A DNA stretch of 64,000 bases, taken from the NCBI GenBank assembly GCA_903851045.1, contig CAINNF010000008.1, positions 299 through 64,298 on the forward strand, written 5' to 3'. A model generated the notes under the pieces. It saw nothing but the letters and a program-made list of their open reading frames with translations. It was not told where the DNA came from and searched no databases. The stretch comes from Candidatus Adlerbacteria bacterium (GTDB lineage: Bacteria; Patescibacteriota; Minisyncoccia; Phycocordibacterales; SBAW01). The translations under genes were made by a program, and so were the position numbers. Below, in pieces: positions 31,091 through 63,951 of this stretch (within the stretch, counting starts at the first letter, position 1; each line of letters opens with the position of its first letter).

Positions 31091-31165
31091 ACACTAGTAT
31101 AACTCCCCCACCGAGTCAAAAGTCGCAGAGTATTGGACACAGACCCTAAGCTGCTCAAAAAGAAG

Positions 31166-31918: not shown

Positions 31919-31979
31919 TCATAAATCCTTTAGGTAAAAAATACTACTCACTACGCACCCCATGTTTTCGAACATATCG

Positions 31980-46249: not shown

Positions 46250-46506
46250 TTGTTACCGTGGGCGTTGTGTTGTGGTCTTGTCTGTGGGGGCGTCTTCGAT
46301 CTGTCGGGGGTGCTCTTTTTCTGGGGGCACGGTCATGAGTACGGTGCTTGGGATCGGCGAGGGTTCGATCGTTATCGTGTGGTTCGGCGAGAGGTGCAAC
46401 TCTTCGAACGAGAGTTTCGTCGCGAGCGGGGTCTTGCCGAACAGGCGCAGGATAGCGTTGGCGATGTCTATCTTGGTTGGGTAGTACGTCTCGGTCAGGG
46501 CGGTCG
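46250..46506. repeat. Direct repeat copy 2 (intact 3' end of the E1-beta gene), marking the right island boundary
   Basis: See copy 1 at 36649-36904. Confidence 0.85.
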
Positions 46507-47407
46507 AGGTGGGGCACGGGACGTCGGGGCACGACAGCGACACGGGGCGGGCCTTCAGTGTGATGTTGTGGTGCTGTGCCACGCGCGCGATGATCTCTGC
46601 GCCGACGCTGAACGCGCGGTGCGTCGTATCGACCGTGATGAGTCTGCCGGTCTTCTTCACCGACGCGAACACGGTCTCGTAGTCTATCGGGTTGATACTC
46701 ACGAGGTCGATGATCTCTACACCCGCGTGCGTGCCGATCAGCTCGCGCGCCTGGAGCGTCGCAACGAGTCCGTCGCCGTAGGTCACCACCGTGACCATGT
46801 CTCCCGTGACGACCACGCGTGCCTCATCGAGCGGCACCGTGTACGACTCCTCGGGCACCGCCTGTTTGGTCCCGTACAGCCAACGAGGTTCGAGCATGAC
46901 GACCGGGTTGTTGTCCGCGATAGCGGACGCGAGCAGACCTTTCGCCAGGTAGGGTGTCGACGGGATGACGACCTTCAGTCCTGGCACACTGCCAAAGAGC
47001 GCGTGGAGCGCCTGTGTGTGTTGCGGCCCATTCCCCCACTGCCGACCAAGGGCGATACGAAAGACGATCGGTACCGGGTTGCCGCCGCCGAACATGTAGT
47101 TCCACTTCGCCGCCTGGGTAAAGATAGGATCGTACGCGAGCATCGCGAACTCGACGCGGCCATGGTGCACGATCGGTCGCAGTCCGTTGATGGCGGCACC
47201 CACCGCCATGCCCGTGAACGCGTTCTCCGAGACCGGCACGTCGAGTATGCGGTCGGGATATTTTACCTTCAGCCCCGCGGTCGTCCCATCCGCGCCGTTG
47301 GGGTAGGAGACGCCAAGGCCGATGACGAAGACCGACTGGTCCTTCTCCATCGCCTGGTCGGTCGCCTCTTTCAGCGCTTCGGTGTATTTGATGATTCGCT
47401 CAGGCAT
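46253..47407 (-). CDS. 2-oxoacid (pyruvate/acetoin) dehydrogenase E1 component beta subunit (transketolase-like) with Pro/Thr-rich about 60-aa C-terminal tail
   Basis: 384 aa. Motifs VFVIGLGV...DVPVSENAFTGMAVGAAINGLRPIV...VVMLEPRWLYG. The tail SPNHTITIEPSPIPSTVLMTVPPEKEHPRQIEDAPTDKTTTQRPR is not part of a canonical E1 beta. Confidence 0.85.
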   Translation of the reverse strand: MPERIIKYTEALKEATDQAMEKDQSVFVIGLGVSYPNGADGTTAGLKVKYPDRILDVPVSENAFTGMAVGAAINGLRPIVHHGRVEFAMLAYDPIFTQAAKWNYMFGGGNPVPIVFRIALGRQWGNGPQHTQALHALFGSVPGLKVVIPSTPYLAKGLLASAIADNNPVVMLEPRWLYGTKQAVPEESYTVPLDEARVVVTGDMVTVVTYGDGLVATLQARELIGTHAGVEIIDLVSINPIDYETVFASVKKTGRLITVDTTHRAFSVGAEIIARVAQHHNITLKARPVSLSCPDVPCPTSTALTETYYPTKIDIANAILRLFGKTPLATKLSFEELHLSPNHTITIEPSPIPSTVLMTVPPEKEHPRQIEDAPTDKTTTQRPR

Positions 47408-49391
47408 AGACGTGTGTGGTTAGTTCTTGTTCGTTCGGGTATGCGGCTTTCTGTGCATCGTCGATAGCTGCGAGCACCTGGGCGCGCACGTCAGTGTCGA
47501 TCTGTGCGAGCGTCTCTTCGGTAACACCTTGGGTAAGGAGCGTCTGTCGCAAACGCTTGATACTATCGTTCTTCGATCGAACTTCGGGCGTATCCTCTTC
47601 GCGATACCCCTGTGCATCATCGAACAGCGGGGCGCTGTGCGCCATGTGTCGGTACGTCATGCACTCCAGGACCGCGGGGGTCTTGGTCTTTCGGATCGAC
47701 GCGACCAGCTCCTTCGCCTTCGCGAGCACGTCCTCGTAGTCGTTGCCGTCCGCTTTCTTGTACTGGACGCCGAACCCCGTCACGATGTGTTCGACATCAT
47801 ACTTGGGAGAGCGACGATCCTTGAGTTTGGAGTTGACCGAATAGAGATTGTTCTCGACCACCAGCAAGAGTGGGAGTTTGAACAGTGCGGACAGATTGAG
47901 CGTCTCGTACACGCCGCCCTCCTCCGACGCCCCGTCGCCGACGAACGCGACCGAGATCCCGCGCTGGTGGTTGTACGCTTGCGCGAACGCAGACCCTGCC
48001 GCGAGCGGGACGGCACTCCCGAGTATCGGCGTCGACCCGACGAAATTGACCGACTTGTCTATCATATGCATCGAGCCACCTTTGCCGTGTGCCACACCCC
48101 CTTCCTTGCCGATCATCTCGCGCACCATGGCGCGCAGGTCGCCGCCTTTGGCGAGATAATGTCCGTGCGAACGGTGGTTGCCCATCACCTTGTCCTGCGG
48201 CTGGAGCGCATCGCACACGCCGGTCGCGACCGCCTCTTGTCCCACATAAAAATGTACGAAGCTCATGATCTTGTGCTTGAGGTACAGCTGCGCGATCTCC
48301 TCTTCGGCGGCGCGCATGTAACTCATCTTGGTGTACGCGCGCAGGAGCGGCGATGGCTGCAGGTCGATGAGGATACGGCTCGCCTCGCCCTTGCGCACCA
48401 GGTCGATCGCCTCGTTGATCTTGTGGATCGGGACACGGTGCGTGATGAGATTGTCGATATTGAGCAACCCGCTTTGGTAGAGCTTGATGTAGCGCGGGAT
48501 CTCGATGCTCGGCGAGAATTGTCCGCCTTGCGTCGCCTTGATCATCTTGCCACTGCCGCCAAAGAAGTGGTTCGCGTTCTTCAGCTCCACCGTCTCGCCG
48601 GGCTTGGGTTGGCCGACCATGATGAAGCGTCCTGTGCCAGAGAGAAGTTGGAGCGTCTCTTCGATGCTGCGCGGACTCCCCGAGGTGTCGATGATGACAT
48701 CCACTTCTTTTATGCCGAACGCCTTATGGAGAGCCTCTTTGATCGACTCGTGCTTACCGTTTATATACAGGTCCGCGCCGAGCTGCTCGGCGACCGCCTT
48801 CTTACTATCATGGATATCGACGCTGATGATGGGGTACGCGCTCACCATCTTCGCCGCTTTGATGAGGTTGACCCCAAGCCCGCCTGCGCCGACGATCATG
48901 ATCCCTTCCCCCATCTTGAGATTCGCCTCCAAGTTCACGGTGCCAAGCGCGGTCGAGAGACTGCATCCCAAGAGCGCGCACAACTCCTCCGGTGTATCCT
49001 GCGGGACGGGCGTGATGCGGTTCTCCGACACGATGGAATATTCGCTGAACGTGGTGACCTTGCCGCTTTTGATGACTTTGCCGTTGAAGATGTAGGACGG
49101 AAAATCGGATTCGATACCATCCCCTTTGCGCCAATGCATGACGACCTTATCGCCCTTTTTTACCTTCGTCACGCCAGCACCGATATCCTCGACGATACCG
49201 CACCCTTCGTGACCCATGAGATGCGGGAGGAACGCCGCGTTGCCTTTGTGGCCACCGATCTCTTGGAGCTGCGAACCGCAGATGCCGCTCACCAACACCT
49301 TCACCAATACCTGACCGAACAAGAGCTCCGTCAGACCAACATCCGCGACCGTGAGCGGCGCATTGATAGCTTCGAGGACAGCGGCTTTCAT
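47400..49391 (-). CDS. Fusion protein: N-terminal Zn-dependent medium-chain alcohol dehydrogenase plus C-terminal TPP-dependent 2-oxoacid dehydrogenase E1 alpha subunit
   Basis: ADH half has MKAAVLEA...GICGSQL...HLMGHEGCGIVEDIG and GAGGLGV. E1-alpha half has YVGQEAVATGV...HRSHGHYLAKGGD...GSMHM...GDGASEEGGVYETLNLSAL...LLVVENNLYS. Continuous frame with no internal stop. Overlaps the E1-beta gene by 8 nt. The start is set at the internal MKAAVL. Confidence 0.8.
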   Translation of the reverse strand: MKAAVLEAINAPLTVADVGLTELLFGQVLVKVLVSGICGSQLQEIGGHKGNAAFLPHLMGHEGCGIVEDIGAGVTKVKKGDKVVMHWRKGDGIESDFPSYIFNGKVIKSGKVTTFSEYSIVSENRITPVPQDTPEELCALLGCSLSTALGTVNLEANLKMGEGIMIVGAGGLGVNLIKAAKMVSAYPIISVDIHDSKKAVAEQLGADLYINGKHESIKEALHKAFGIKEVDVIIDTSGSPRSIEETLQLLSGTGRFIMVGQPKPGETVELKNANHFFGGSGKMIKATQGGQFSPSIEIPRYIKLYQSGLLNIDNLITHRVPIHKINEAIDLVRKGEASRILIDLQPSPLLRAYTKMSYMRAAEEEIAQLYLKHKIMSFVHFYVGQEAVATGVCDALQPQDKVMGNHRSHGHYLAKGGDLRAMVREMIGKEGGVAHGKGGSMHMIDKSVNFVGSTPILGSAVPLAAGSAFAQAYNHQRGISVAFVGDGASEEGGVYETLNLSALFKLPLLLVVENNLYSVNSKLKDRRSPKYDVEHIVTGFGVQYKKADGNDYEDVLAKAKELVASIRKTKTPAVLECMTYRHMAHSAPLFDDAQGYREEDTPEVRSKNDSIKRLRQTLLTQGVTEETLAQIDTDVRAQVLAAIDDAQKAAYPNEQELTTHVYA

Positions 49392-49420
49392 TGGCTTGAA
49401 GTATAGTGTAAAACTAATCA

Positions 49421-50119
49421 ATGTCCAGCATCGTCGTGTACCACCCTGTCGGTCTAGGTGACCACCTCGCATGCAGCGGTATCGTGCGCACGTACGCCAC
49501 CACCCACGACCGGGTCGGGGTCTTTTGCCTAGAGCAGAACTACCCGTCGGTCTCCGCTCTCTACCGCGACCTACCGAACGTGACCGTGCTGCGCGTGCGG
49601 TCGCACCGGGACATACAGCGCTTCCGCTTGCGCAACGCGATGCATCTCACCCGCAATCATTACGACCGGGTACTCAACGTGCGGGTGCTCGACGAAGAGT
49701 CCGGTATCCAATACGAAAAGCAATTGTATCGATCCGCGAACGTACCGATCGAGAACCTATGGGACAAATTCTTGCTCCAACGAGACGCCGCGGCGGAGCG
49801 AGCACTGATGGAGAAGCTGCATGCACCCGGCGCATACCAGTTCATCCACGAAGACGCGCGCTTCCCGCTGACACCGACCAAATTGTCGAACCTCCCCGCA
49901 CTGCGACCGGACCTCGCGCTGACGAAGAACATCTTCGACTACTGCTCGGTCATCGAGTGCGCCCAGGAGATCAACGTCATGGACTCGTCGTTCATGTTCC
50001 TCGTCGATTGTCTCGACTACACTGCGCCGAACCAGAAGCGATTCATACACCGCTACGCTCGACCGAACATGCCGTGGAACCTGCCCCTCCTACGCAAGCA
50101 ATGGACCATACTCACCTAA
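49421..50119 (+). CDS. Hypothetical protein (possibly glycosyltransferase-related)
   Basis: 232-aa ORF with plausible codon usage. No confident family. Confidence 0.35.
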   Translation: MSSIVVYHPVGLGDHLACSGIVRTYATTHDRVGVFCLEQNYPSVSALYRDLPNVTVLRVRSHRDIQRFRLRNAMHLTRNHYDRVLNVRVLDEESGIQYEKQLYRSANVPIENLWDKFLLQRDAAAERALMEKLHAPGAYQFIHEDARFPLTPTKLSNLPALRPDLALTKNIFDYCSVIECAQEINVMDSSFMFLVDCLDYTAPNQKRFIHRYARPNMPWNLPLLRKQWTILT

Positions 50120-53457: not shown

Positions 53458-54600
53458 TCACACCGGATACCGCGACTGCATGAAGGTGATGATCCGTCTC
53501 GCGCGCATCTCCCACGTGAGCGTCCGCACTTTCGCTTGCGCATGCGCTGCCCGCTCGGGTGTGTCCGACCCGACAAGCGCATCAGCTACGGCTTGCGCGA
53601 GCGAGTCGGCATCATCCGGCTCGAAGAGGTATGCTTCGCTCGGTGACAGGACATCGGTCACTGCCGGAGTCGCGCTCGCCACGATCGGTGTCTTGGATGC
53701 CATGTACTCGAACAGCTTCATCGGCGACGTATACCGACTGGAGTCCTCGTTCTTGTTCGTCCCCAGCAGCAACAGCGCATCGGACGCTCGCAACCACAGC
53801 GGTATCTCCCCCACTGGTCGCTCGCCCATGAAGACGAGGTTATGGGGGATCGCCGTCGCCCCGGTCACCTGCATGAACGACTCTTTGGTGCCACCAACGA
53901 TGTAACACTGCACGCCAGGAGGCAGTTTCTCGCACGCAGGCAGTACGATATCGAGACCTTTCCACTGATAGAACCGGCCGACGTAGAGCACGATCTTCGT
54001 GTCCTGCGGGAGAGAGAGCTTTTCGCGCGCCTCGCGTCGTGTCACCTCGAGCGCGAACGATGAGAGGTCGACGCCGTTGGGTGCCGAGATCACCTTGGTC
54101 TCGGGTAGATGATAGTCGTCGATAAGGCGTTGCCGGATAAGCCCGTTGGTAGCCACCACACCGGTCGCACGCACGAAGAAGAAACGCTGCACCCACGAAG
54201 GCGTCTTGGGCGTGTGCATCTCGGTGAACGTCTTCCCCACCAGCGGCAGCGGTGCGTACGAAAAGGAATCCATGTCTATCGTGTAGACCGTGAAGCGCTC
54301 GCCGCGCATCTTTTTGTACCACAGCAGACACTCGACGAACACGATAAAAAAGAACGAGCCGAGCGCGAACCCGAGAGGGCCAGCGCGATAGAGATCGAGC
54401 GTCGGGACCAGCACCCGCGGCACGTCATGGGACAGACCATAGAAGTCCTTCAACGACTGCTTCTGTGTCTGGCGTCGCGGCACAATGAGGGTGAGGTCTA
54501 TGCCGTGCGCCACGAAAGCCTCGCACATCTTGGCGATCTGGATGCCGTGCGCCTTTTCGTTCGGCATGCGCGCGTTCGCGACGTAGTAGAGCTTCCGCAT
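53458..54600 (-). CDS. GT4 (GT-B, retaining) glycosyltransferase
   Basis: 380 aa. C-terminal EX7E-like region SPMKLFEYMASKTPIVAS. Confidence 0.8.
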   Translation of the reverse strand: MRKLYYVANARMPNEKAHGIQIAKMCEAFVAHGIDLTLIVPRRQTQKQSLKDFYGLSHDVPRVLVPTLDLYRAGPLGFALGSFFFIVFVECLLWYKKMRGERFTVYTIDMDSFSYAPLPLVGKTFTEMHTPKTPSWVQRFFFVRATGVVATNGLIRQRLIDDYHLPETKVISAPNGVDLSSFALEVTRREAREKLSLPQDTKIVLYVGRFYQWKGLDIVLPACEKLPPGVQCYIVGGTKESFMQVTGATAIPHNLVFMGERPVGEIPLWLRASDALLLLGTNKNEDSSRYTSPMKLFEYMASKTPIVASATPAVTDVLSPSEAYLFEPDDADSLAQAVADALVGSDTPERAAHAQAKVRTLTWEMRARRIITFMQSRYPV

Positions 54601-54620
54601 ATGGTTACTCTACTATAACT

Positions 54621-55337
54621 TCATGTACGGGCGCGAGGTCTCTTCACGCCACCATGGATGATCCAGTCGGCCAACAACACTCCGATCGCCCAAAGACCGT
54701 CCCGGTATCGGATCTTCTTGCCCTCGGCGCGCGTGCGCGGACGATACGTGATAGGCACTTCAGCGAAACGATACCCAGCCCGGGACAGGGCCGCCGCGAT
54801 AAGGATGTCGGACTCGAACCCGCCCGCTTTGAACAGATGCGCCGACTCTCGGGGAAATAGTTTGTAGCAGGTGCACACATCGGTGAGCTGCAGATCGTGC
54901 AACGTGTTCACCAATATCGTGAGCACCCGCACGCCGGTACGCGGCAGGAGCGACCCCTTCACCGTGTGGGGGGAAATGGTGCGAGAGCCATACACGACCT
55001 CCGCATGACCCGCATGTATCGGCTCGAGCAGTGCCGCGATTTCTCCCGGGTCATACTCGAGATCGGCATCCTGGATGACCACGTAGTCGCCGGTCGCTTG
55101 CGCGAAACCGGTGCGTACCGCGGTCCCCTTCCCACCGTTCTTCGGTTGCCGGATAGAGGATATCCGGTCCGCATAGGTCGCCAGGATCTTCGACGAGCCG
55201 TCCGTCGACGCATCATCGACCACGATGATCTCTTTCTCCCACGGCACAGGGAGCGTTATCGCGAGCACCTTGGTCAGCAACGCATCGAGCGTCTTCTCTT
55301 CGTTATAGCACGGTATGATGATGGAGAGCTTAGGCAT
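54621..55337 (-). CDS. GT2 polyprenol-phosphate sugar synthase (DPM1/ArnC/GtrB-like)
   Basis: Motifs MPKLSIIIPCYNEEKTL...IIVVDDASTDGS...VIQDADLEYDP. The start is moved to MPKLS (ATG at 55337), which overlaps the upstream gene's stop. Confidence 0.8.
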   Translation of the reverse strand: MPKLSIIIPCYNEEKTLDALLTKVLAITLPVPWEKEIIVVDDASTDGSSKILATYADRISSIRQPKNGGKGTAVRTGFAQATGDYVVIQDADLEYDPGEIAALLEPIHAGHAEVVYGSRTISPHTVKGSLLPRTGVRVLTILVNTLHDLQLTDVCTCYKLFPRESAHLFKAGGFESDILIAAALSRAGYRFAEVPITYRPRTRAEGKKIRYRDGLWAIGVLLADWIIHGGVKRPRART

Positions 55338-56730
55338 GGTGGCGCTGTTTTTTGCGTCGTACCCGATCATACAGGACAGCGAGCGCATAGAGCGCGAACA
55401 CGAACATGAAGGCCTGTACTGGCAGACGATACCGTGCAGTGATACCAAGTCCCGCAATCAAGGTCGTGAGGGCGCTATAGAGGACCACGACGACCATAAT
55501 GCTCGCATATCGCGTCGTTTGTTCGCGTCGCAGGTACCACCACGAACCGATGAAGAACAGTATGGTCGTCACGACCCAAAAGATCCTTCCGAACAAAACG
55601 AAGATGGACGGAGTCAACGCGACCTGCGCGATGACGCTCACGAGCGTCGCCGGAGATGAGAACAGCACGAACAGTGCTGGCTTACCAAAACGCAATGAAG
55701 TAGACGCACCGATGTGGCGTAAAAAGTCGAGCACCCCATCACTGGTGAAAAAGCTGACACCTGTATTCACGCCGATGATCACCAAACCCTTCTTGTGTTC
55801 CAAGAGCAGCGGCACGGCAAGACGCGTGTACGGCTTCCCTTTGGTGATGTCTGCGTCGTTCGGACCCTGCACACCATTGCTCGTAATGGTGTCGTACTCG
55901 TGCTGCCAGCTGGTGCCGTGCTCGACACTCAGCACGGAGGGTAGCAGGACGGTGTATAGATTCACCCCAAGCTGCGGGCTTAGATCGGCGACACCGAACA
56001 CCACTTCGTTCCGACACAGCCACGGCGTGATGACCGCAACAAACATGAGTAGGTACGCGATTACCGACAAGTATACTTTTTTTGAAAGATGTTTCCGCGC
56101 ATCCCACACCATACACGCCGCGATGAACACCGGGAGATACTCGACGGCTGGCCTGGTCAAACACGCGAGTCCCAACAAACCTGCCGAAGCGAGGAGCGGC
56201 CAGAGCTGCTTCCGAGCGAAGTACCGAAACAAACACCAGAACGATAGGAAGGATAGGAATATGAATACTATCTCGCTATAGAAAAAGGTTGAATAGAGTA
56301 TGCCGCTCGGCTCAAGCGCGAGCAGTATCCCTACCGCCGCGATCATCCGACGCGACGTGAGCACATACGAGGCGAGTATCATGCCTAGGACCGGCAACAT
56401 GCTGCCGATGACCATTTGCAACAGTATCGACCCCAAAAAGCCATGGAACAACCAATAGGACCCGACGATAAAGTAGAAGTAGAGCGGTGGACGGAACGAG
56501 TACGGCAGATACGGAGCCGATGAGGAGTCAGTAAAACCGTGTCCCGCGATGATATTCTTCGCCACCGTAAAGTATCCGTCCGCCCCACTGATCGCACCGA
56601 ACAGGTCGCCGCCATAGTGCGCGATGCTCAGTTCAAGGTAAAGAAAGCGTACCGCAAAGGCGAGGATGAAGACGAGTACCTCCAGGCGATAGGTGGTGAA
56701 AAAAGTCTGTAGTTTTTGGCGTAGCGTCAT
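55330..56730 (-). CDS. GT39/GT83-like (PMT/ArnT-type) polyprenol-phosphate-sugar-dependent integral membrane glycosyltransferase
   Basis: About 12 TM helices. N-terminal loop YLELSIAHYGGDLFGAISGADGYFTVAKNIIAGHGF is typical of PMT_2/ArnT-like transferases. ATGA overlap with the upstream methyltransferase. Confidence 0.7.
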   Translation of the reverse strand: MTLRQKLQTFFTTYRLEVLVFILAFAVRFLYLELSIAHYGGDLFGAISGADGYFTVAKNIIAGHGFTDSSSAPYLPYSFRPPLYFYFIVGSYWLFHGFLGSILLQMVIGSMLPVLGMILASYVLTSRRMIAAVGILLALEPSGILYSTFFYSEIVFIFLSFLSFWCLFRYFARKQLWPLLASAGLLGLACLTRPAVEYLPVFIAACMVWDARKHLSKKVYLSVIAYLLMFVAVITPWLCRNEVVFGVADLSPQLGVNLYTVLLPSVLSVEHGTSWQHEYDTITSNGVQGPNDADITKGKPYTRLAVPLLLEHKKGLVIIGVNTGVSFFTSDGVLDFLRHIGASTSLRFGKPALFVLFSSPATLVSVIAQVALTPSIFVLFGRIFWVVTTILFFIGSWWYLRREQTTRYASIMVVVVLYSALTTLIAGLGITARYRLPVQAFMFVFALYALAVLYDRVRRKKQRHHA

Positions 56731-57398
56731 TGTGGGGTGTATTGATAGAGAGCGATATGAAAGAGGTCGAACGGCCACAGGAGCGGCACCTGTCGTCGGG
56801 CAAGTCTCCTAAAACCTTCCTTGCGGACGATTGCATCGATTTGCCGAGCGTTGTGGTAGTGCACTCCGGCTCCCGGACCGGACTCTTGCGAATAGGTCCC
56901 CTTCAACAAGAATCGCAACGATTTATACAACACCGACTCTACGGGTTCGCTCGTAATGAGGTACCCCCCAGGACGCACGACTCGGACGAACTCCAACAGC
57001 GGCGCACGCAGGTCTTGCATGTGTTCAAGCGTGTCGAGACACACGATCGCATCGATGGACGAGTCTGCCAGGTGCGTCTGTTCAAGATGCTCGACACGAA
57101 ACGTAACCCCGGGGATAGTGCGAGCAAGGTCGAGTACCGCAGGGTTGAGGTCGAGTCCATACAATTCTTGATACGGGAGGTGTGCTGCTTGTATGCACTT
57201 GATGAACGACCCATCTCCGCATCCGATGTCGGCTATCACCTGCGCGCTGGTCGCACGCACGTACTCAAGAGCGACCCTCAGACGTGACGCAAAAAGCCAA
57301 CGCACCACGGGATTTTTTGACTGATACTCCGGCACAATCATCGAAAGCGGAATATCTAACTTTTGTTTTGTATCAATAGATGCCATAGCGATAACCAC
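56727..57398 (-). CDS. Class I SAM-dependent methyltransferase
   Basis: 223 aa. Motif I VIADIGCGDGSF. Confidence 0.7.
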   Translation of the reverse strand: MVIAMASIDTKQKLDIPLSMIVPEYQSKNPVVRWLFASRLRVALEYVRATSAQVIADIGCGDGSFIKCIQAAHLPYQELYGLDLNPAVLDLARTIPGVTFRVEHLEQTHLADSSIDAIVCLDTLEHMQDLRAPLLEFVRVVRPGGYLITSEPVESVLYKSLRFLLKGTYSQESGPGAGVHYHNARQIDAIVRKEGFRRLARRQVPLLWPFDLFHIALYQYTPQ

Positions 57399-57401
57399 GA
57401 C

Positions 57402-57899
57402 TTATACATCGTCCTCACGTGAGCATAGCACATCTCGTGCGGGATGAAGCTTCGCCTCTCGTGCAAAGATACCGTAGCGGTACAGAAAAAAACTTGAACA
57501 GGCGATGAGCACGCTCGAGATCGCCTGTGCGAGAATATACCATATATGGAGACCTTCGACGAGCACGTACAGTAACGCGATATTGATACCGAAGTTGCCC
57601 ACCGTCACCGAAAAAAAAGCGAACGCCTGCAGGTGCATCCGTTCGATCGAGTGGTCCCGAAATGTCCAAAATTTTTGGAGAGCGAAACCGATCCCGGCGG
57701 CGCATACGAACGAGACACAAGCGGACGCAAGGTAGTACAACCGAGCGTACTCGGTGAGCACGTATAATAAGCCGATATTACAGCCTGCCCCAAGCGTTCC
57801 GGAGATCAAAAACCTCCCCACCGTCTTTATGATCGTGTGGTGTGCCCTGGTACGCACATAAAGCGCCGAGAGTATTCGCATAATCCAAAATACATACAT
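57402..57899 (-). CDS. GtrA-family small membrane protein
   Basis: 165 aa, 4 TM helices. Motif GRFLISGTLGAGCNIGLLYVL is typical of GtrA. Confidence 0.75.
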   Translation of the reverse strand: MYVFWIMRILSALYVRTRAHHTIIKTVGRFLISGTLGAGCNIGLLYVLTEYARLYYLASACVSFVCAAGIGFALQKFWTFRDHSIERMHLQAFAFFSVTVGNFGINIALLYVLVEGLHIWYILAQAISSVLIACSSFFLYRYGIFAREAKLHPARDVLCSREDDV

Positions 57900-58064: not shown

Positions 58065-58550
58065 ATGAGCGAACCGCGGTTAGCTCCGATCGTTGGGGCA
58101 CTACCGAGCGTCCGTGATGTCGGTTTGCGGCCACTGCCTCCCGATGACCCAGCCAGTCCGAAAGGGCGCAACACCTGGAACTGGCCCTTCCCGGCCAACC
58201 CCATACCGGGACAGACCATGATTGCTCGTCGCTTCACAGGCGATGCGGTGGGCGGTCACTTCCACGTACGCCGCACCCAAGACGCGCTGCACAACAAGGA
58301 TCCCGAATATCTGCTACTCATAACAGGCAGAGCCCATTTTTGGTTCCAAGATACGTCCGGCGAAGAGGTCGAGATGGTTTTGGACGCCACGATGGGGCCG
58401 CAGGAGGTGCGCATACCGCCGTACATCCTGCACATAGTGACGGTCTTGAGCGACATGATCATATTCATCGAACAACAACCGGCCGCATATGACCCGAAGA
58501 TGACCTATAACGCGGACGAGTTCGAACTACTTGTCGCGTCGCTCAAGTAA
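58065..58550 (+). CDS. Cupin-fold protein, possibly sugar ketoisomerase/epimerase (WxcM/FdtA-like)
   Basis: 161 aa. HFH motif (GGHFHVRR) in a beta-barrel-sized protein, just upstream of the C-methyltransferase and epimerase/dehydratase genes. Confidence 0.4.
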   Translation: MSEPRLAPIVGALPSVRDVGLRPLPPDDPASPKGRNTWNWPFPANPIPGQTMIARRFTGDAVGGHFHVRRTQDALHNKDPEYLLLITGRAHFWFQDTSGEEVEMVLDATMGPQEVRIPPYILHIVTVLSDMIIFIEQQPAAYDPKMTYNADEFELLVASLK

Positions 58551-58650
58551 CGGTAACGACAACAGTGTGCGAGGCGCGACCGATCGGTCGCGCCTCTTTT
58601 TATATGGCTTGTTCATTTGCACCCGTGGTCGTTTTCCTTATACTGGACCC

Positions 58651-59832
58651 ATGACATGCCGCATCTGTGCTAAGGAGACATTAGTCGAGTTCATCGATCT
58701 AGGGCAACAGCCGCTCGCGAACAAATATCCGAAACCAGAAGAGTTCGCAACGGAGGATTTTTTCCCGCTCAAGGTGTTCTTTTGTACCTCGTGTAAGGCG
58801 GTGCAGCTCGGTACGGTCGTGTCGCGCGAACGCATGTTCGTCGACTACTACTACCTCTCATCGGTCAACCCAGGGTTGGTGCGACACTTCGAGGAGTTCG
58901 CCCGGTCGCTCGCATCCGCGAAGTTCGTGGTCGACGTCGGCTCCAATGACGGTATACTGCTGCGGCCGCTCAAGGCGCTCGGAGTCAAAGCGATCGGTAT
59001 CGAACCCTCCATCAACGTCTCGAAGATCGCGAACGACCAGGGTCTCACCACCATGACCGCGTTCCTCAACGACGAGTCCGCTGCGGCGCTGGTCGCACAG
59101 CATGGTAAGGCCGATGTCGTGGTGACCTCGAGCGTCTTCACACACCTGGAAGATCCACACCAGTTCATCGAAGCGACGAAGAAGGTCATGACCGATGACG
59201 GTTCGTTCATCATCGAGGTCGAATATATCGGGAACATGCTGAAGAACGTGCAGTTCGAACGGTTCTACTTCGACCGCGTGTTCTACTACTCGGTGACCTC
59301 GCTACGCGACCTCTTCGCCGCCCACGGTATGTACGTCTCCGACGTCGAGCATATCGAACAGCACGGCGGGTCCATCCGTGTCACCACGCATCTGGTGGGT
59401 CACGGACCCGAGCCGTCGGCACGCTTCGCCGCATATATCGAAGAGGAGCGCACGACCATGGACCAGCCATCGCTCGAACACTTCGCGAAGCTCTCCAACG
59501 AGTATGTCGCCGCGTTCAAGCACAAACTCATCGAATACAAAGAAGCGGGGCTTCGCGTGGCAGGCTACGGTGCCCCGGCGCGCGTCGCCACCATCTGCAA
59601 CTTCGGCGACATCGGCCCGTCGCTTATCGAGTTCATCATCGACGACAGTCCGCTCAAGCAGCACCGCTGCAGCCCTGGGACGCACATACCGATCGAACCG
59701 AACACCCACCTTGCCGACCACCGGCCGGACGTACTGGTCGTGTTCGCCTACGAATACTTCGATGACATCAAAAAGAAGGTCCAGGGCAACTACCGGTTCC
59801 TGATCCCGATCCCCCCTCGAGAAGTGGCGTGA
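58651..59832 (+). CDS. NDP-hexose C-methyltransferase-like (TylCIII family) with N-terminal Zn-ribbon
   Basis: Starts at MTCRICAKE (ATG 58651). Zn ribbon CRIC...CTSC. SAM motif VVDVGSNDGILL. C-terminal C-methyltransferase-like domain. Confidence 0.7.
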   Translation: MTCRICAKETLVEFIDLGQQPLANKYPKPEEFATEDFFPLKVFFCTSCKAVQLGTVVSRERMFVDYYYLSSVNPGLVRHFEEFARSLASAKFVVDVGSNDGILLRPLKALGVKAIGIEPSINVSKIANDQGLTTMTAFLNDESAAALVAQHGKADVVVTSSVFTHLEDPHQFIEATKKVMTDDGSFIIEVEYIGNMLKNVQFERFYFDRVFYYSVTSLRDLFAAHGMYVSDVEHIEQHGGSIRVTTHLVGHGPEPSARFAAYIEEERTTMDQPSLEHFAKLSNEYVAAFKHKLIEYKEAGLRVAGYGAPARVATICNFGDIGPSLIEFIIDDSPLKQHRCSPGTHIPIEPNTHLADHRPDVLVVFAYEYFDDIKKKVQGNYRFLIPIPPREVA

Positions 59833-59884
59833 CCAGCCGCCCGCAATCTGGCATCTTTCCTCCACTATGGTATAGTGGCCCGCG

Positions 59885-60973
59885 ATGCAAGAAGCAATCG
59901 TATGGGAGGACATAGCGACCATCGGCAAGAATCTCGGAGCCGAAGCGCACAAGCTCGAAGGTAAGACCGTTCTTATCAGTGGCGGTTCAGGGTTTCTTGG
60001 TAAATACCTCATCGGAGCACTGTGCTACCTTAACGACACGACGCTCGCGAAGCCGTGCCGTATCATATCCGTCGACAATTTCATCACCGGACAGCCACAC
60101 CCGGATTTTAATTTTAGATTGCGCGACGACGTCCTCGAGGTGTGGGGTGACGTCTCCCAGCCCCTCCCCGTCCGTGAGGATATCCATTACATCATCCACG
60201 CCGCCGGACTCGCCTCACCGGTGTATTACAAAAAGTATCCACTGGAAACCATCGAAAGTGCCGTCACTGGCGTGAAGAACCTCCTCGAACTCGCCCGCAA
60301 GAACAAAGGGCTGGAAGGATTCCTGTTCTTCAGCTCAAGCGAGATCTACGGCGACCCCGACGAGAAGGCGGTACCGACACCCGAGACCTACCACGGCTAC
60401 GTCTCTTCGGTCGGGCCGCGAGCATGCTACGACGAATCCAAGCGCCTGGGAGAGACGATCTCGACGATCTACAACGAACAATTCGGCATACCCGTCACCA
60501 TCGTGCGTCCGTTCAACGTCTTTGGCCCGGGCATGGGTCACGCCGACCGACGCGTGCTCCCCATGTTCGCGTACAAAGCGCTCAACAAGCAGCCGATACC
60601 CGTGCACGGCGACGGACACCAGACGCGCACGTTCTGCTATATCACCGATGCTGCCACCGGCTTTTTGAAGGTCCTCCTCATGGGCACACCCGGCGAGGCG
60701 TACAATATCGGAAGCGCGGACAACGAGATATCGATGCGCAACCTTGCGAAACTGTTCGTCGAGATCGAGGGGAACGGTGCATCGTACCAGATGATACCCT
60801 ACCCGACCAACTACCCTGCCGGTGAGCCACAACGACGTTGCCCAGACATCTCGAAAGCGAAACGAGAACTGAACTTCATACCAAAAGTAGACCTCAAGAG
60901 CGGGCTGTCTCGGTTCATCGACTGGTGCAGGACCGACCCGCGCTACTCCGAAGGAGCCTCGCAGGACGCCTAG
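59885..60973 (+). CDS. NAD-dependent sugar-nucleotide epimerase/dehydratase (extended SDR, UDP-glucuronate decarboxylase/dTDP-glucose-4,6-dehydratase-like)
   Basis: 362 aa. Motif VLISGGSGFLGKYL (GxxGxxG). Catalytic SSSEIYG...YDESKRLGE (YxxxK). Confidence 0.85.
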   Translation: MQEAIVWEDIATIGKNLGAEAHKLEGKTVLISGGSGFLGKYLIGALCYLNDTTLAKPCRIISVDNFITGQPHPDFNFRLRDDVLEVWGDVSQPLPVREDIHYIIHAAGLASPVYYKKYPLETIESAVTGVKNLLELARKNKGLEGFLFFSSSEIYGDPDEKAVPTPETYHGYVSSVGPRACYDESKRLGETISTIYNEQFGIPVTIVRPFNVFGPGMGHADRRVLPMFAYKALNKQPIPVHGDGHQTRTFCYITDAATGFLKVLLMGTPGEAYNIGSADNEISMRNLAKLFVEIEGNGASYQMIPYPTNYPAGEPQRRCPDISKAKRELNFIPKVDLKSGLSRFIDWCRTDPRYSEGASQDA

Positions 60974-62145
60974 CTACGCAGTGTGCGTTTGCGCAACTCG
61001 CGGATGATGTTCTGCATGAGCGCGTCCACTCGGAAATACCGCACGAACGCATCGCGTGCGTTCTGTTGCATCTCTTGAAACTTCGCGTCGGTGAGTCCCG
61101 CATGGAACTGCGCGACGATCTCCGGCAGACGGTGCATGTCACGAAAGTCGACGACGAGACTGAACGTGGAGTAGTCCAACGTGTCGCTGAACGGCAGGCA
61201 CCGCTCCGTATCGATGATCAGTGGGATGCGCCCAAGCGACGCGATCTCGAACAGGCGCGTCGAGGCATTCGGGTCGCCACGTGCATCGAGCCCGTAGTCG
61301 CTACTGAGCAGATTGTCGACGAGTTCTTGTTGCAGCTCCTTCGGGGGCTTCTCTGCGGTATGTGTGTGGGCAGAGTACGATGACCGCACGTTGAAGTGCG
61401 TCTCGACGAGCGGTGAGCGACGCAGGATGGCTACCGCCTCGCGCCGAAAGAAGATACCTTTCTTCATCGATCGGTATCGAGTGTCGAAGATCCCTCGTAA
61501 ACGCGCCGGGAGCTCTTTGACTATAGAGCGAACCTCTTGCTTGAGGGTCATGGACGCCCACCCGGAGAACGCGACGATCGGCCGCTCCGACTTCGCGCGC
61601 AGCGAAAGCTTCCCATCGCAAAAGACCTCCAGTAGGTCGTCCGCATACGGCGGGAGATGGATATCGTGTTCGTGCGGCAAGAACCGATACCCGGCCCAGC
61701 GCAGGACGAACGTGTTCGGCAGGTCGATCGGCACCTCGACGTCGCTCATAGCGTCGACGAGAAGTGGGATGTGGGCGCGCTGCGCCACCTCATGACACGT
61801 CTGGAGCAGCTCGGGGAAACAACGCCGTACGACGTTATGCGAGTACGGCATCAGTACCGCATCGGCCTTCGCCAGCACGTCGGTGATCGCGTAGACCGAG
61901 GTGTCGAACGAGTGCCGCTCGAACAAAGCATGCTGCAGTGGCGTGCGCGACGGGTCGAGCGTGTTGCCCCAAAACGGGTATAGGAGCGCCGTATGTTGCC
62001 CTTCTCGGCGCCATGCGGGGTCGACATAGAACGTCATGAAATCGTTGTGCATCCGCCCATTGTACCCCAAAAGCTGCGCTAGACCATTGCGTCCCTCTTG
62101 AGCCGGCATGGTAGAATGGTCGAGATCATGGCAACTGAGCCTCAC
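60970..62145 (-). CDS. Exostosin (GT47)-like glycosyltransferase, paralogue A
   Basis: 391 aa. C-terminal DYGLDARGDPNASTRLFEIASLGRIPLIIDTERCLPFSDTLDYSTFSLVVDFRDMHRLPEIV matches the exostosin pattern CxxPxG..S.R..E....GCIPV......LPF...DW..FSV.V. The true start may be the internal MHNDFMTFYVDPAW. Confidence 0.45.
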   Translation of the reverse strand: MRLSCHDLDHSTMPAQEGRNGLAQLLGYNGRMHNDFMTFYVDPAWRREGQHTALLYPFWGNTLDPSRTPLQHALFERHSFDTSVYAITDVLAKADAVLMPYSHNVVRRCFPELLQTCHEVAQRAHIPLLVDAMSDVEVPIDLPNTFVLRWAGYRFLPHEHDIHLPPYADDLLEVFCDGKLSLRAKSERPIVAFSGWASMTLKQEVRSIVKELPARLRGIFDTRYRSMKKGIFFRREAVAILRRSPLVETHFNVRSSYSAHTHTAEKPPKELQQELVDNLLSSDYGLDARGDPNASTRLFEIASLGRIPLIIDTERCLPFSDTLDYSTFSLVVDFRDMHRLPEIVAQFHAGLTDAKFQEMQQNARDAFVRYFRVDALMQNIIRELRKRTLRS

Positions 62146-63243
62146 GACCGATTACTGTTCTACGTCGACCCTGCGTGGCAGAAACTGCCCGGCCCATACT
62201 CGTTGCTGCTGTATCCGTTCTGGGGTGACCAGTCGAGCGCTTCGAGTCCTTTTCGAAAGATGGCGCTCGAGTCGTATCCACTCGACATGATGCAGTACGG
62301 TATCACCGCCGACCTCGACGCGGCTGACGCCGTGCTCATGCCGTTCTCTGACGAGATCGCAGCACGATACCACCCGACGCTTCTCGCCGAATGCCAGGAG
62401 CTATCACGCACCTCGGGTCTCCATCTGGTCATCGACGGCATGGGGCATCTCGAAACCCCCTTCCGACTCCCGAACGCGAGCATCATACGATACGGTGGAT
62501 ACCGATTCGAGACCGGTCCATCCGAGATCCATGTCACCCCGTTCGCCGATGACCTGCTCGAACGCTACAAGGGCGGCACGCTCACCGTGCGCCCCAAACA
62601 GGACCGTCCGAGCATCAGCTTCGTCGGGTGGGCGCATCTCACACCGAGCCTGCGCGCGAAGAGCATCATCAAGGAACTGCCCGACCGTCTGCACGGCTTC
62701 ATCGACAGCCGCTATCGAACCAAGAAGAAAGGACTCTTCTTTCGAGAACGAGCACTGCGAGCGCTCAACGCGTCGCCACTGGTCGACGCGAAGACCATCG
62801 CGCGGCCTACCTATTCGGGAAGCATCAAGACCGTCGTTGGCGACATAGAGACCGCGCGTCGTGAGTTCGTCGATACGATGTTCGACTGCGACTACGGCCT
62901 CGAAGTACGCGGCAATTCGAACGTCTCGACCCGACTGTCCGAGATCACCGGACTTGGACGCATACCGGTGATCATCGATACGCAGCGGAATCTCCCCTTT
63001 GGGGACGAACTCGACTACTGCGACTTCAGCCTCGTTGTCGACTTCCGTACACTCGACAAACTGCCACGCATCCTGCACGACTTCCACGCAAACCTATCCG
63101 ACGCGCAATTCGCACAAATGCAACGCAACGCGCGCGACGCATACGTGTCGCACATGCGCCCGGACGCGGTCATGTCCTACGTCGTCCGCCGCATCCGTCA
63201 GAACATGGACCGTCTGGGGAGCACTCGTCGAATAGCACGCTAG
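62098..63243 (+). CDS. Exostosin (GT47)-like glycosyltransferase, paralogue B (divergent from A)
   Basis: 381 aa, co-linear with paralogue A (FYVDPAW, LLYPFWG, DAVLMP, DYGLEVRGNSNVSTRLSEITGLGRIPVIIDTQRNLPFGDELDYCDFSLVVDF). The true start may be the internal MATEPHD. Confidence 0.45.
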   Translation: MSRHGRMVEIMATEPHDRLLFYVDPAWQKLPGPYSLLLYPFWGDQSSASSPFRKMALESYPLDMMQYGITADLDAADAVLMPFSDEIAARYHPTLLAECQELSRTSGLHLVIDGMGHLETPFRLPNASIIRYGGYRFETGPSEIHVTPFADDLLERYKGGTLTVRPKQDRPSISFVGWAHLTPSLRAKSIIKELPDRLHGFIDSRYRTKKKGLFFRERALRALNASPLVDAKTIARPTYSGSIKTVVGDIETARREFVDTMFDCDYGLEVRGNSNVSTRLSEITGLGRIPVIIDTQRNLPFGDELDYCDFSLVVDFRTLDKLPRILHDFHANLSDAQFAQMQRNARDAYVSHMRPDAVMSYVVRRIRQNMDRLGSTRRIAR

Positions 63244-63276
63244 ACAACCAACTTCACCCTGTGATAGCTTGAATGC

Positions 63277-63951
63277 ATGTCTATGATTAAAGATCTCGTC
63301 AAAACAAAAATTAAACATCTACTCGGCAAAGGTTCGTACCGCGCGTTCGGTCAGAACGGCGAGGATGCGATGATACACGCGCTCCTGCGCGGTATCGACA
63401 AAGGCACCTACGTCGATGTCGGCGCATACAACCCCATCCTCTATTCCAACACCTACGGCTTGTACCGCGAGGGTTGGAGCGGTATCACGATCGACCCGAA
63501 CCCGGCGGTCCAGCCACTGCATCGTATCCTGCGACCACGCGACACGTTCGTGCTCGGAGGTGTGTCGAACGTCGAGAAGGAGTGCGACTACTATCGATTT
63601 ACGGATGGCGCATACAACACCTTCGACCCGGAGGTCGCCGAGGACCTAAAGACGAAACGATACCCGCGCTTCATCAGAAAGGAGACCTCGCACCTTTATC
63701 CCCTGCACTCTATCCTCAAGAAGAACAACATCACCAAGGTCGATTTTCTCGACGTGGATGTCGAGGGTCTCGACGTGGAAGTGTTGGAGTCATTCGACTG
63801 GAACCTGGCACCACGCGTGGTCGCTATCGAGAGTCGTTCGTTCAAGCCGGAGACCATGACCGCCGACCCAGCATACGTGTTCCTACGCAATCACGGCTAC
63901 GTACTCGCGGGCTTTCTCAAATACACCCTTGTGTTCGTACACCAAGGCTAA
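63277..63951 (+). CDS. FkbM-family methyltransferase
   Basis: 224 aa. Motifs YVDVGAYNPILYSN...FLDVDVEGLDVEVL. Confidence 0.65.
   Translation: MSMIKDLVKTKIKHLLGKGSYRAFGQNGEDAMIHALLRGIDKGTYVDVGAYNPILYSNTYGLYREGWSGITIDPNPAVQPLHRILRPRDTFVLGGVSNVEKECDYYRFTDGAYNTFDPEVAEDLKTKRYPRFIRKETSHLYPLHSILKKNNITKVDFLDVDVEGLDVEVLESFDWNLAPRVVAIESRSFKPETMTADPAYVFLRNHGYVLAGFLKYTLVFVHQG

Follow-up and report, generated by a model that had tools for sequence, protein, structure and literature searches.

A head-to-head pair of exostosin-like (GT47) glycosyltransferase genes in a Patescibacteria surface-glycan island

GT47 enzymes make heparan sulfate in animals, and xylan, xyloglucan, and pectin side chains in plants. 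To our knowledge, all characterised members are eukaryotic membrane proteins, hard to produce. What, then, are two exostosin-like genes doing head to head in Candidatus Adlerbacteria, and how did they come to lie there? We address these questions for the window (the whole 64,000-nucleotide stretch of contig CAINNF010000008.1 that was analysed).

The gene pair and its fold

Open reading frames occupy 60970..62145 (minus strand) and 62098..63243 (plus strand), exactly as given in an initial annotation made from the sequence alone. Their products, here termed A and B, are a divergently transcribed paralogous pair, as that annotation proposed: BLASTP gives 47% identity and 64% positives with 2 gaps over 354 residues (E 4e-118), far beyond chance, and the homology still shows in the DNA, where inverted repeats align over 182 nt at 72%. 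The motifs originally quoted (FYVDPAW, LLYPFWG, DAVLMP, CDYGLEVRGNSNVSTRL, GLGRIPVIIDT, and FSLVVDF) all occur in B, the plus-strand protein, and have co-linear equivalents in A. The quoted length of about 385 residues holds for the maximal reading frames; the likely proteins, with starts set by alignment with 40 homologues, are shorter:

60970..62052, minus strand: gene A, canonical Patescibacteria GT47-like glycosyltransferase (ATG at 62052, MHNDFMTFYVDPAW, 360 aa; maximal reading frame to 62145), assigned by N-terminal alignment, PF03016, tree, synteny, and model
62128..63243, plus strand: gene B (P0001), divergent B-type GT47-like paralogue (ATG at 62128, MATEPHDRLLFYVDPAW, 371 aa; maximal reading frame from TTG at 62098), assigned by PF03016, model, and tree
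62053..62127, no strand: intergenic region (75 bp, GC 0.57) separating the likely, divergently oriented starts of A and B

The sister protein P0002 begins at the same position as B's likely start (ATG 62128). Public gene calls begin A at 62109 (379 aa) and B at 62116 (375 aa, protein P0001), leaving the two only 6 bp apart. A sigma-70 scan of 60700-63500 placed no −35/−10 promoter-like site within 62053-62127, a scan of 60700-63500 likewise returned no terminator-like site, and Rfam and tRNA scans of the whole window were empty. Because maximum Kyte-Doolittle hydropathy (19-residue window) reaches just 0.94 and 0.74 for the two proteins, neither is predicted to contain a membrane segment, and both would be soluble.

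Are these proteins exostosin relatives, as first proposed? Three approaches agree that they are: a PF03016 profile search, a PDB profile search, and Foldseek comparison of structure models. PF03016 scores A at 44.9 bits and B at 34.9 bits (gathering score, 33.4), and is matched by 40 of 40 homologues at E<=1e-3. The PDB profile search matches only EXT2 (2.8e-7), EXTL3 (1.2e-6), and EXT1 (2e-5). The AlphaFold models (A: pLDDT 93.9, pTM 0.91; B: pLDDT 90.9, pTM 0.90) bear out the GT-B fold that had been suggested, with exostosin GT47 domains (EXTL3, EXT2, EXT1) as the top 16 Foldseek matches of both. These alignments extend over about 360-397 columns (query-normalised TM ~0.52-0.58, rmsd 6-10 A). 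For B, ranks 1-16 span E 7e-12 to 2e-7, and the next GT-B family follows at 1.6e-6; for A, they span 4e-11 to 5e-8, and the next match is GlgM at 8e-8. At the sequence level only the C-terminal ~80-100 residues align, roughly a third of the exostosin domain: Pfam, the PDB profile search, and hhalign against EXT1 residues 101-451 all find no similarity to the exostosin N-terminal subdomain, which the models of A and B resemble at the fold level only. NCBIfam offers no meaningful match for either protein, and Pfam no GT64 match. Polysaccharide pyruvyl transferase, named in the initial annotation as an alternative, was also sought; neither Pfam nor NCBIfam gives PF04230 or a related match, even at E<=10.

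One might still suppose that some other GT-B family (pyruvyl transferase, GT4, or TagF-like) matches the exostosin profile by chance, or that the genes were recently acquired from a eukaryote. The Pfam match is indeed partial (profile positions ~200-292 of 293, with B just 1.5 bits above threshold), and generic GT-B enzymes (GT4, GT90) also figure in the Foldseek lists of both models. However, at the top of those lists exostosin structures stand above all other GT-B families, by ~10^5 in E-value for B and ~10^3 for A; the GT47-specific motif RG...R..E...P.......LPF aligns residue for residue; and the sole other Pfam or NCBIfam family matched, weakly, is RXYLT1_C, the C-terminal domain of the eukaryotic xylosyltransferase RXYLT1. 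As for a eukaryotic source, bacteria hold hundreds of deeply diverged clusters, and human exostosins are only 10-17% identical to A and B. Both suppositions are therefore highly improbable. Judged by sequence and by predicted structure, A and B have the GT47 fold together with the GT47 nucleotide-binding motif.

The accompanying idea that the family is rare in bacteria does not hold. Matches to a family profile, grouped at 50% identity, amount to 4,015 clusters, 633 of them at E<=1e-30, and GT47-like proteins are carried by species-representative genomes of many Patescibacteria lineages and of at least five other phyla. In these bacteria the family is common and already auto-annotated, NCBI naming its members 'exostosin family protein'. 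GT47 has been termed a 'eukaryotic' family (PMC9178029), and literature searches found no characterised bacterial or CPR exostosin. Nor is there evidence for the eukaryote-like glycan linkage once suggested for the pair, identity to eukaryotic GT47 proteins being only 10-17%.

A standard gene and an old neighbour

A and B are part of a very large cell-surface-glycan island in this Patescibacteria (Parcubacteria/Paceibacteria-type) genome, with at least three sugar-modification subsystems and more than 10 transferases. The genes flanking the pair are:

59885..60973, plus strand: extended-SDR NDP-sugar dehydratase/decarboxylase-like gene (PF01370, PF16363), convergent with A, the two ends overlapping by 4 bp
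63283..63951, plus strand: FkbM-family methyltransferase, directly downstream of B (PF05050, 58 bits; gene call; alternative ATG at 63277)

The SDR gene is the last of a cupin, C-methyltransferase, and SDR trio (58065-60973). Against NCBIfam the SDR protein reaches no family's cut-off; the 161-aa protein is WbuC-cupin-like. Counterparts of the SDR and of the C-methyltransferase, 62-84% identical, are found again at other Patescibacteria loci. Further genes of the window code for an ABC exporter; a Wzy_C/O-antigen-ligase-like protein with TPR repeats; a GT2/GtrA/GT-C trio; NeuB; and a CMP-sugar synthetase.

A is the syntenic orthologue of a near-universal gene, found as a single copy per locus in ~50 other Patescibacteria genomes, within the block GT4-GT4-methyltransferase-GT47-GT4. 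It is 46-60% identical to these single-copy orthologues (B, 41-51%), and the tree places it among them. Of 53 loci, 36, 45, 22, and 30 have the conserved neighbour families c1, c0, c3, and c2, respectively, and on the source contig these surround A in the same order. Gene order is co-linear, too, at the locus of A's closest relative, which holds a single copy.

B represents a rare, old, and faster-evolving lineage, always beside an FkbM gene in its three known organisms. Its closest relatives elsewhere are 59-63% identical, A only 47%. Three B-type genes are known (B, P0002, and P0035), two of them on short contigs; searches of metagenome contigs with B alone, and then with an alignment of B and P0002, added no further loci within the reach of the patterns used. 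The FkbM gene adjoins the B-type gene at 3 of 3 loci, and is 66-100% identical to that of the window (66% and 68% at the two other loci). Upstream of the two other B-type genes lies a GT4 gene or a small ORF, with no A-type gene adjacent. At L082 and L086, the B-type and FkbM pair adjoins a GT4 (of the type at L001 17347-18609) different from the GT4s that flank A.

In the window, the methyltransferase and A are separated by B and FkbM, which are encoded on the opposite strand, within the c1-c0-c3-GT47-c2 block and not at its edge; the head-to-head geometry follows from this placement. Gene-order comparison thus presents B and FkbM as an opposite-strand cassette set next to A. A repeat search returned only the A/B homology, with no insertion scars around the cassette, and GC3 is 0.74 for B and 0.77 for A, counted as the same. 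Any transfer of the cassette would therefore be old.

The initial annotation had proposed a different origin: recent local (inverted) duplication, followed by sub-functionalisation. Adjacency, homology along the whole length, and shared GC3 are what such an event would leave. The tree contradicts it: A and B are sisters in 0 of 100 bootstraps, whereas B and P0002, which come from different organisms, are sisters in 100 of 100. The smallest clade that holds both A and B has at least four tips, and at least 78 in 85 of 100 replicates. Moreover, the B lineage occurs in two other organisms of different GC (P0002 gene, 0.49 versus 0.60), at 59-63% identity versus 47% for A, and synteny favours cassette placement. 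Synonymous sites between A and B are near saturation (pS 0.64, dS ~1.4), which also argues against a recent event. (For B versus P0002, dS is saturated outright. Of the pairwise alignment and dN/dS comparison once suggested as a check, the alignment is sound, at 47% identity; dN/dS is uninformative because synonymous sites are at or near saturation.) Recent local duplication is already contradicted, and we give it almost no credence. From the comparisons above, the pair arose by an old divergent copy being placed beside the standard copy.

Donor-site and acceptor-side residues

UDP-binding residues of EXT1 include Y324, R338-G339, R346, and E349 (PMC9675754; PMC9178029). With an EXT1 sequence checked to be identical to 7sch_A, hhalign aligns these with F251, R265-G266, R273, and E276 (P0001 numbering). 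EXT1 R346 is the pyrophosphate-binding Arg, and E349 is the conserved Asp/Glu of helix C-alpha-4, represented by E453 in EXTL3 and E293 in IRX10 (PMC9178029, PMC9675754). A and B carry both: the E349-equivalent Glu is present in 254 of 254 homologues, and the R346-equivalent Arg in 252. The segments concerned, and a position at which the two proteins differ, are as follows:

62908..62943, plus strand: B donor-site segment RGNSNVSTRLSE (by hhalign, R261-G262 corresponds to EXT1 R338-G339, N263 to R340, R269 to R346, and E272 to E349)
61246..61281, minus strand: A donor-site segment RGDPNASTRLFE (same motif, with the family-typical Asp at the EXT1 R340 position)
62446..62448, plus strand: B codon for His107, in the motif VIDGMGHLETP (249 of 254 family members have Asp at this N-subdomain position)
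61741..61743, minus strand: A Asp104 codon, motif LVDAMSDVEVP (conserved Asp present)

In B numbering, G262 and E272 are invariant among the 254 homologues and R269 is found in 252. The Asp replaced by His107 is kept even in distant phyla. His is found at this position also in P0002 and L086/P0035; among the 254 sequences, the change is confined to the B type. Highly conserved Asp residues occur at positions 104 and 139 of A, of which B has the second and His at the first. The donor-sugar loop is altered as well, from RGD-A-NAS to RGN-S-NVS. Across 108 conserved columns B departs at 20 (most of them common to P0002) and A at 6; B retains the other highly conserved residues D142, K157, R206, R226, G262, and N265. 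The His substitution and altered loop suggest a changed specificity or, less likely, an EXT2-like pseudo-enzyme. If the Asp replaced in B is the catalytic base, B could be inactive.

Taken as a whole, the evidence is best explained if A and B are soluble, cytoplasmic, single-domain GT-B enzymes of the GT47 family, with A catalysing the standard step and B and FkbM forming an added module; from the sequences and models, we consider this probable. Each enzyme would move one sugar from a nucleotide sugar with inversion, creating a beta linkage; we infer donor, acceptor, and stereochemistry alike. (All characterised GT47 enzymes known to us are inverting and form beta linkages.) The acceptor would be a lipid-linked oligosaccharide that the flanking GT4 enzymes assemble at the cytoplasmic face. 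A would carry out the standard step on it. B, whose donor-sugar loop is altered and whose acceptor-side Asp has become His, probably attaches another sugar or acts at another acceptor position; FkbM would then O-methylate the product, so that B and FkbM would serve as a decoration or chain-capping module. A and B presumably act in succession or in parallel on the same glycan, not as an obligate complex.

Do the two genes serve the same glycan at all? Their adjacency might be incidental, B and FkbM acting, for example, on a GT2/GtrA/GT-C or nonulosonic-acid branch. The number of sugar-modification subsystems and transferases in the island leaves room for this, and the unlike GT4 beside the L082 and L086 pairs is in keeping with it. 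Against it, the cassette sits inside the conserved block, and separate products have no independent evidence; we consider incidental adjacency unlikely. Somewhat less likely again is an arrangement like EXT1 and EXT2, in which B, as a pseudo-enzyme with impaired or rewired catalysis, would pair with active A in a heterodimer and modulate or scaffold it. The B-type His invites the comparison, as does the 75-bp divergent control region that A and B have in common, EXT2 being a GT47 paralogue that lacks acceptor-side Asp residues and is inactive yet required (PMC9675754). But B has the equivalents of both Arg346 and Glu349, whereas EXT2 lacks Arg346, and the six other conserved residues listed above are intact. 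Moreover, His can act as the general base in inverting GT-B enzymes of other families (GT1, for instance), and the parts by which EXT1 and EXT2 dimerise (coiled coil, GT64) are absent from A and B. A heterodimer is also less likely because the locus holds just one copy in ~50 genomes and the two other B-type genes have no A-type neighbour. More doubtful still is a proposal for the B-type lineage in general (B, P0002, and P0035): that it is a rewired GT47, with acceptor-side Asp changed to His and a changed donor loop, acting as an EXT2-like non-catalytic partner of A or through a different catalytic dyad. If this is true, prokaryotes would have their first example of an active/pseudo-GT47 pair, and exostosin biochemistry would gain a soluble bacterial model.

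The favoured reading, two soluble enzymes with B and FkbM as an added module, does not overturn current knowledge, and relatives are already auto-annotated as exostosin family proteins. Its interest lies in a compact, soluble, single-domain GT47 relative that is a standard part of a surface-glycan operon in many ultra-small Patescibacteria. Such a protein could serve as a tractable system in which to study GT47 catalysis, and could mark an uncharacterised, heavily methylated envelope glycan in bacteria living attached to host cells. What the pair itself adds is modest: a divergent copy of old origin, in which Asp has changed to His, is accompanied by a methyltransferase of its own.

Comparison with known GT47 proteins

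Among the closest counterparts are the NCBI 'exostosin family protein' entries of Patescibacteria MAGs (for example P0015, P0029, P0058, and P0091). Their identity is 45-47% with B and 46-60% with A, and length, motifs, and operon context are the same. They differ in being single copy per locus, with neither the B-type His/N-loop signature nor the head-to-head arrangement, and none is experimentally characterised.

The GT47 (GlcA-transferase) domain of human EXT1 (7sch_A, 7uqy_A) has the GT-B fold in common with A and B and is among the best structural matches of both models. R338-G339, R346, E349, an aromatic or hydrophobic residue at the Y324 position, and the subsequent 'PV....LPF' segment are all matched; inverting transfer from a UDP-sugar is presumed. 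However, identity is only 10-13%, and the N-terminal subdomain cannot be aligned by sequence, including the region of the EXT1 candidate bases D162 and D164. The R340 position is Asp in the family and Asn in B. The type-II signal anchor, coiled-coil stem, and fused GT64 domain of EXT1 and EXTL proteins are likewise absent from the bacterial proteins, which are ~360 aa, soluble, single-domain, and operon-encoded.

EXT1 and EXT2 together offer a second parallel: two paralogous GT47 modules per genome, one of which (B, in this case) lacks a highly conserved acceptor-side acidic residue. Yet in EXT2 Arg346 is missing and the donor pocket is occluded (PMC9675754), whereas the donor motif of B is full; and B-type genes occur without an adjacent A-type gene, just as A-type enzymes work alone in most genomes.

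The single-domain GT47 enzymes of plants (the xylan xylosyltransferase IRX10, MUR3, and others) are Golgi type-II membrane proteins, and no plant GT47 structure is among the matches to A or B. They nevertheless resemble the bacterial proteins in consisting of a stand-alone catalytic domain that attaches, or in A and B would attach, a single beta-linked sugar to a polysaccharide, and the helix C-alpha-4 Glu of IRX10, E293, corresponds to the family-invariant Glu of A and B (PMC9178029).

The divergent pair and its family

Two overlapping ORFs lie head to head near the end of the window. The initial annotation had read them as a divergent pair of paralogues, and the pair is real: both ORFs lie exactly where it placed them, all the motifs it quoted are present and co-linear, and the products share 47% identity and 64% similarity over 354 aligned residues, with two gaps (E 4e-118). 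The homology is visible in the DNA too, as inverted repeats (182 nt, 72%).

60970..62145, minus strand: gene A (ORF call)
62098..63243, plus strand: gene B (ORF call)
62053-62127: divergent A/B spacer, 75 bp, from the preferred starts
62112-62117, plus strand: -10-like hexamer TAGAAT (by eye)
complement of 62059-62064, minus strand: -10-like hexamer TACAAT (by eye)

Alignment with 40 homologues places their starts 5-10 residues ahead of the FYVDPAW strand, which favors ATG 62052 as the likely start of A (360 aa) and ATG 62128 as that of B (371 aa). P0002, the sister of the B protein, starts at the Met homologous to ATG 62128. In the public record of the contig (CAJBBF010000002.1, assembly GCA_903951275.1), the annotated starts are 62109 for A and 62116 for B, only 6 bp apart; judged by the homologues, these are probably over-extensions. 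From each hexamer to the preferred start codon is a distance of 7-12 nt, a hint that leaders may be very short or the transcripts leaderless. A two-hexamer promoter scan called neither.

The family was rightly named. Both proteins exceed the curated threshold for PF03016, Exostosin_GT47 (A, 44.9 bits; B, 34.9; threshold, 33.4), and the profile matches 40/40 homologues at E<=1e-3. Among Pfam and NCBIfam profiles, nothing else matches A or B except, weakly, RXYLT1_C. The family's own profile, run against all PDB sequences, finds only EXT2, EXTL3, and EXT1 (2.8e-7 to 2e-5). AlphaFold models are confident (A: pLDDT 93.9, pTM 0.91; B: 90.9, 0.90), and in Foldseek searches of the PDB with either model, the first 16 ranks all go to GT47 domains of exostosins, with alignments of 363-397 columns. 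With B, these hits span E 7e-12 to 2e-7, ahead of the next-ranked GT-B family at 1.6e-6; with A, they span 4e-11 to 5e-8, followed by GlgM at 8e-8.

Critical residues also correspond. An hhalign comparison with EXT1 residues 101-451 (100% identical in sequence to 7sch_A) aligns EXT1 Y324, R338-G339, R346, and E349 with F251, R265-G266, R273, and E276 of P0001, the publicly called form of B. UDP is bound in EXT1 by R346 and E349, and the R346A mutant is inactive (PMC9675754); the hallmark of the GT47 family is the acidic residue of C-alpha-4 (PMC9178029). The Glu equivalent to E349 is present in 254/254 diverse homologues and the Arg equivalent to R346 in 252/254; A and B carry both.

Distribution and origin of the two genes

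The family is neither rare in bacteria, as the initial annotation had supposed, nor unannotated. A word-indexed search with B returned 324 relatives, the named ones being "exostosin family protein" from MAGs of Minisyncoccia, Kaiserbacteria, Parcubacteria, and Patescibacteria. When 1.84 billion cluster representatives were searched exhaustively with the profile, 4,015 clusters matched at E<=1e-3, 1,484 at <=1e-10, and 633 at <=1e-30. Genomes scanned at one per species yielded 78 loci, about 55 of them in Patescibacteria (34-51% identity); distant relatives (24-36%) occur in Cyanobacteria, Bacteroidota, Acidimicrobiia, Acidobacteriota, Nitrospinota, and one gammaproteobacterium. A literature search found no characterized bacterial member, and no mention of exostosins in Patescibacteria. 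The pair is thus of a kind already known and automatically annotated; of modest interest is that in Patescibacteria the family is conserved as a core part of glycan operons.

That core emerged when the four genes flanking the GT47 gene in either direction were clustered at 53 Patescibacteria loci. The block order is c1, c0, c3, GT47 gene, c2, and the source contig (locus L001) retains it on the minus strand, with A in the GT47 position:

L001 13504-15699, minus strand: c1, GT4 (36/53 loci)
L001 12466-13500, minus strand: c0, short GT4-like protein (45/53 loci, upstream every time)
L001 11843-12472, minus strand: c3, class-I methyltransferase ahead of the GT47 gene (22/53 loci), followed by A
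window 53461-54609, minus strand: c2, GT4 after the GT47 gene (30/53 loci, mostly at +1)

GT2 (Dpm1-like), GtrA, RmlB-like, and B12-radical-SAM genes also are frequent neighbors. The nearest relative of A, P0032, occupies a co-linear, single-copy locus (GT4, methyltransferase, GT47, GT2::GT-C fusion, GtrA). On the source contig, two opposite-strand insertions interrupt the block: B with an FkbM methyltransferase gene, between c3 and A; and a cupin, C-methyltransferase, and SDR trio between A and c2, followed by minus-strand GtrA, methyltransferase, GT-C, and GT2 genes before c2.

In tblastn searches of all fetched loci with A and B, nearly every Patescibacteria locus had a single copy within +-10 kb, and the head-to-head pair appeared only on the window's own contigs. 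Single-copy Patescibacteria genes are nearer to A (46-60%) than to B (41-51%). A neighbor-joining tree built from 124 sequences, with distant homologues as the root, places A inside the group of single-copy orthologues (P0032, P0045, and others). B and P0002 are sisters in 100/100 bootstraps, A and B in none of the 100. A third gene of the B type, P0035 at locus L086, is broken by an assembly gap; a frameshift was considered for this split and rejected. The B-type genes of the other two organisms are 59-63% identical to B, as against 47% between A and B, so the A/B split is older than the divergence of the organisms carrying the B type. The P0002 gene has a GC content of 0.49, versus 0.60 here. 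The recent duplication initially proposed is therefore contradicted. The dN/dS test is unreadable because synonymous sites are saturated (dS about 1.4 for A versus B, and not calculable for B versus P0002).

An FkbM gene follows all three B-type genes, the other two being 66-68% identical to the window's FkbM. Neither of those B-type genes adjoins an A-type gene; a GT4 gene lies upstream of both. Together, block synteny and this linkage mean that the head-to-head geometry is best read as a B plus FkbM module placed beside resident gene A. The placement is old, since third-position GC is alike (GC3: B, 0.74; A, 0.77) and a repeat search found no flanking insertion scars around the module.

Several other Patescibacteria MAGs contain two GT47-like copies. 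Those of locus L039 share a strand and one contig, 8.5 kb apart (4007-5062 and 13596-14708); those of L042/L049 and L016/L030 lie on different contigs within one MAG. A third subfamily seems to be formed by these second copies, which align over about 374 aa at 41-44% identity. Paralogy is thus common in this family; the head-to-head layout is not.

Distinctive residues of gene B

In an alignment of 116 close homologues, 108 columns reach 90% conservation or more; A deviates from the consensus at 6 of them and B at 20, and P0002 shares the majority of B's departures. Two are conspicuous. One concerns the Asp of "LIDGxGD-IE", a motif in the loop that follows the fourth N-subdomain strand. All 116 of these homologues have this residue, as do A and five more distant members found in other phyla; B, P0002, and P0035 have His instead. 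Beyond the B type, it is altered in just two of 254 sequences, to Phe and Ser.

61741-61743, minus strand: A Asp104 codon, conserved Asp kept
62446-62448, plus strand: B His107 codon, His replacing the conserved Asp

The other is in the donor loop, changed from RGDANAS to RGNSNVS in the B type. The residue aligned with EXT1 R340 is Asp in 217/254 sequences and Asn in B-type proteins; the EXT1 loop G339-F345, which holds R340, has been proposed to read the sugar (PMC9675754).

These changes read as altered specificity rather than loss of function. The near-universal Asp is a candidate catalytic base, and its replacement could mark B as an EXT2-like pseudo-enzyme. We consider this improbable: D142, K157, R206, R226, G262, N265, R269, and E272, all highly conserved, are intact in B, and inverting enzymes of other GT-B families can use His as the general base. 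The rare B-type lineage, FkbM-linked throughout and with His at a near-universal Asp position, is of modest interest.

The glycan island and the eukaryotic enzymes

The surrounding island encodes many GT4 proteins, one GT9, and several O- and C-methyltransferases. Other features of the window are the following:

10934-13204 and 18804-20666, minus strand: Wzy_C (O-antigen-ligase-like) protein, 756 aa, with C-terminal TPR repeats; fused-type ABC exporter
16885-18672, minus strand: B12-binding radical-SAM enzymes
25299-32975, minus strand: NeuB-type nonulosonic-acid synthase (29990-31090), CMP-sugar cytidylyltransferase (27475-28269), APH-like kinase, GT2, FkbM, GNAT
37577-45900, minus strand: SpvB-domain protein (497 aa), then RHS-repeat protein (2,315 aa; RHS_repeat, Gly_rich_2, DUF6443, FG-GAP domain matches)
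46253-49472, minus strand: Zn-alcohol-dehydrogenase::pyruvate-dehydrogenase E1-alpha fusion (690 aa) and E1-beta/transketolase-like gene
54621-57899, minus strand: GT2 (Dpm1/AglJ-like), GT-C (PMT_2), GtrA
58065-60973, plus strand: WbuC-like cupin (161 aa), TylC3-type sugar C-methyltransferase (Methyltransf_13/14), extended SDR (below all NCBIfam cut-offs)

The transferases, the methyltransferases, the NeuB segment, the cupin trio, the GT2/GtrA/GT-C set, the exporter, and the Wzy_C protein fit a lipid-linked, heavily methylated oligosaccharide that would be assembled at the cytoplasmic face, exported, and ligated to a surface acceptor. The ABC exporter and Wzy_C protein are candidates for flippase and ligase/O-oligosaccharyltransferase, and the predicted GT2, GT-C, and GtrA set is typical of extracytoplasmic glycosylation via a polyprenyl-phosphate sugar. 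In L083, the locus of A's closest relative, the corresponding set spans 11110-13904, and its GT2 and GT-C are one fused protein (790 aa) directly after the GT47 gene. As to precursors, the NeuB segment is predicted to provide this CPR genome with a pathway to a sialic-acid-like sugar. The probable product of the cupin trio is a nucleotide sugar with a C-methyl branch; the trio's C-methyltransferase and SDR pair recurs at many Patescibacteria loci (62-84% identity). Where E1 alpha/beta pairs occur in sugar clusters, their products are sugars with a two-carbon branch (avilamycin AviB1/B2, aldgarose). The pair here would fit a branched or methylated sugar theme; it recurs (68%, 63% identity) beside a distant GT47-like gene in a Paceibacteria genome (L065). 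B12-binding radical-SAM enzymes, another of which (cluster c7) lies at +1 of the GT47-like gene at 9/53 loci (L023 and eight more), may be sugar C-methylases or epimerases. Within such a pathway, the standard beta-linked residue of the conserved block would come from A. B would differ from it in the residue added or in the acceptor position used, and its product would next be methylated by FkbM, so that the two together would decorate or cap the glycan.

The RHS and SpvB genes occupy the window's lowest-GC part (0.44-0.49 at 42-46 kb, versus about 0.57 elsewhere) and look like a Tc/RHS-type toxin locus breaking the island, notable in an ultra-small, episymbiont-type genome. Separately, a lamin-tail-domain protein lies beside glycan clusters in three organisms (L001 19360-21128, L083 87-926, L086 1519-4792), accompanied in L001 and L086 by a TraG/VirD4-like coupling ATPase.

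The rarity and recent duplication initially claimed do not hold, and the suggested heterodimer and eukaryote-like chemistry are unsupported. Sequence likeness to eukaryotic GT47 enzymes does not extend beyond the C-terminal subdomain; in the N-terminal half, only the fold is alike. Hydropathy analysis finds no hydrophobic segment in either A or B, and both are predicted to be soluble cytoplasmic proteins, in which they differ from the eukaryotic GT47 enzymes.
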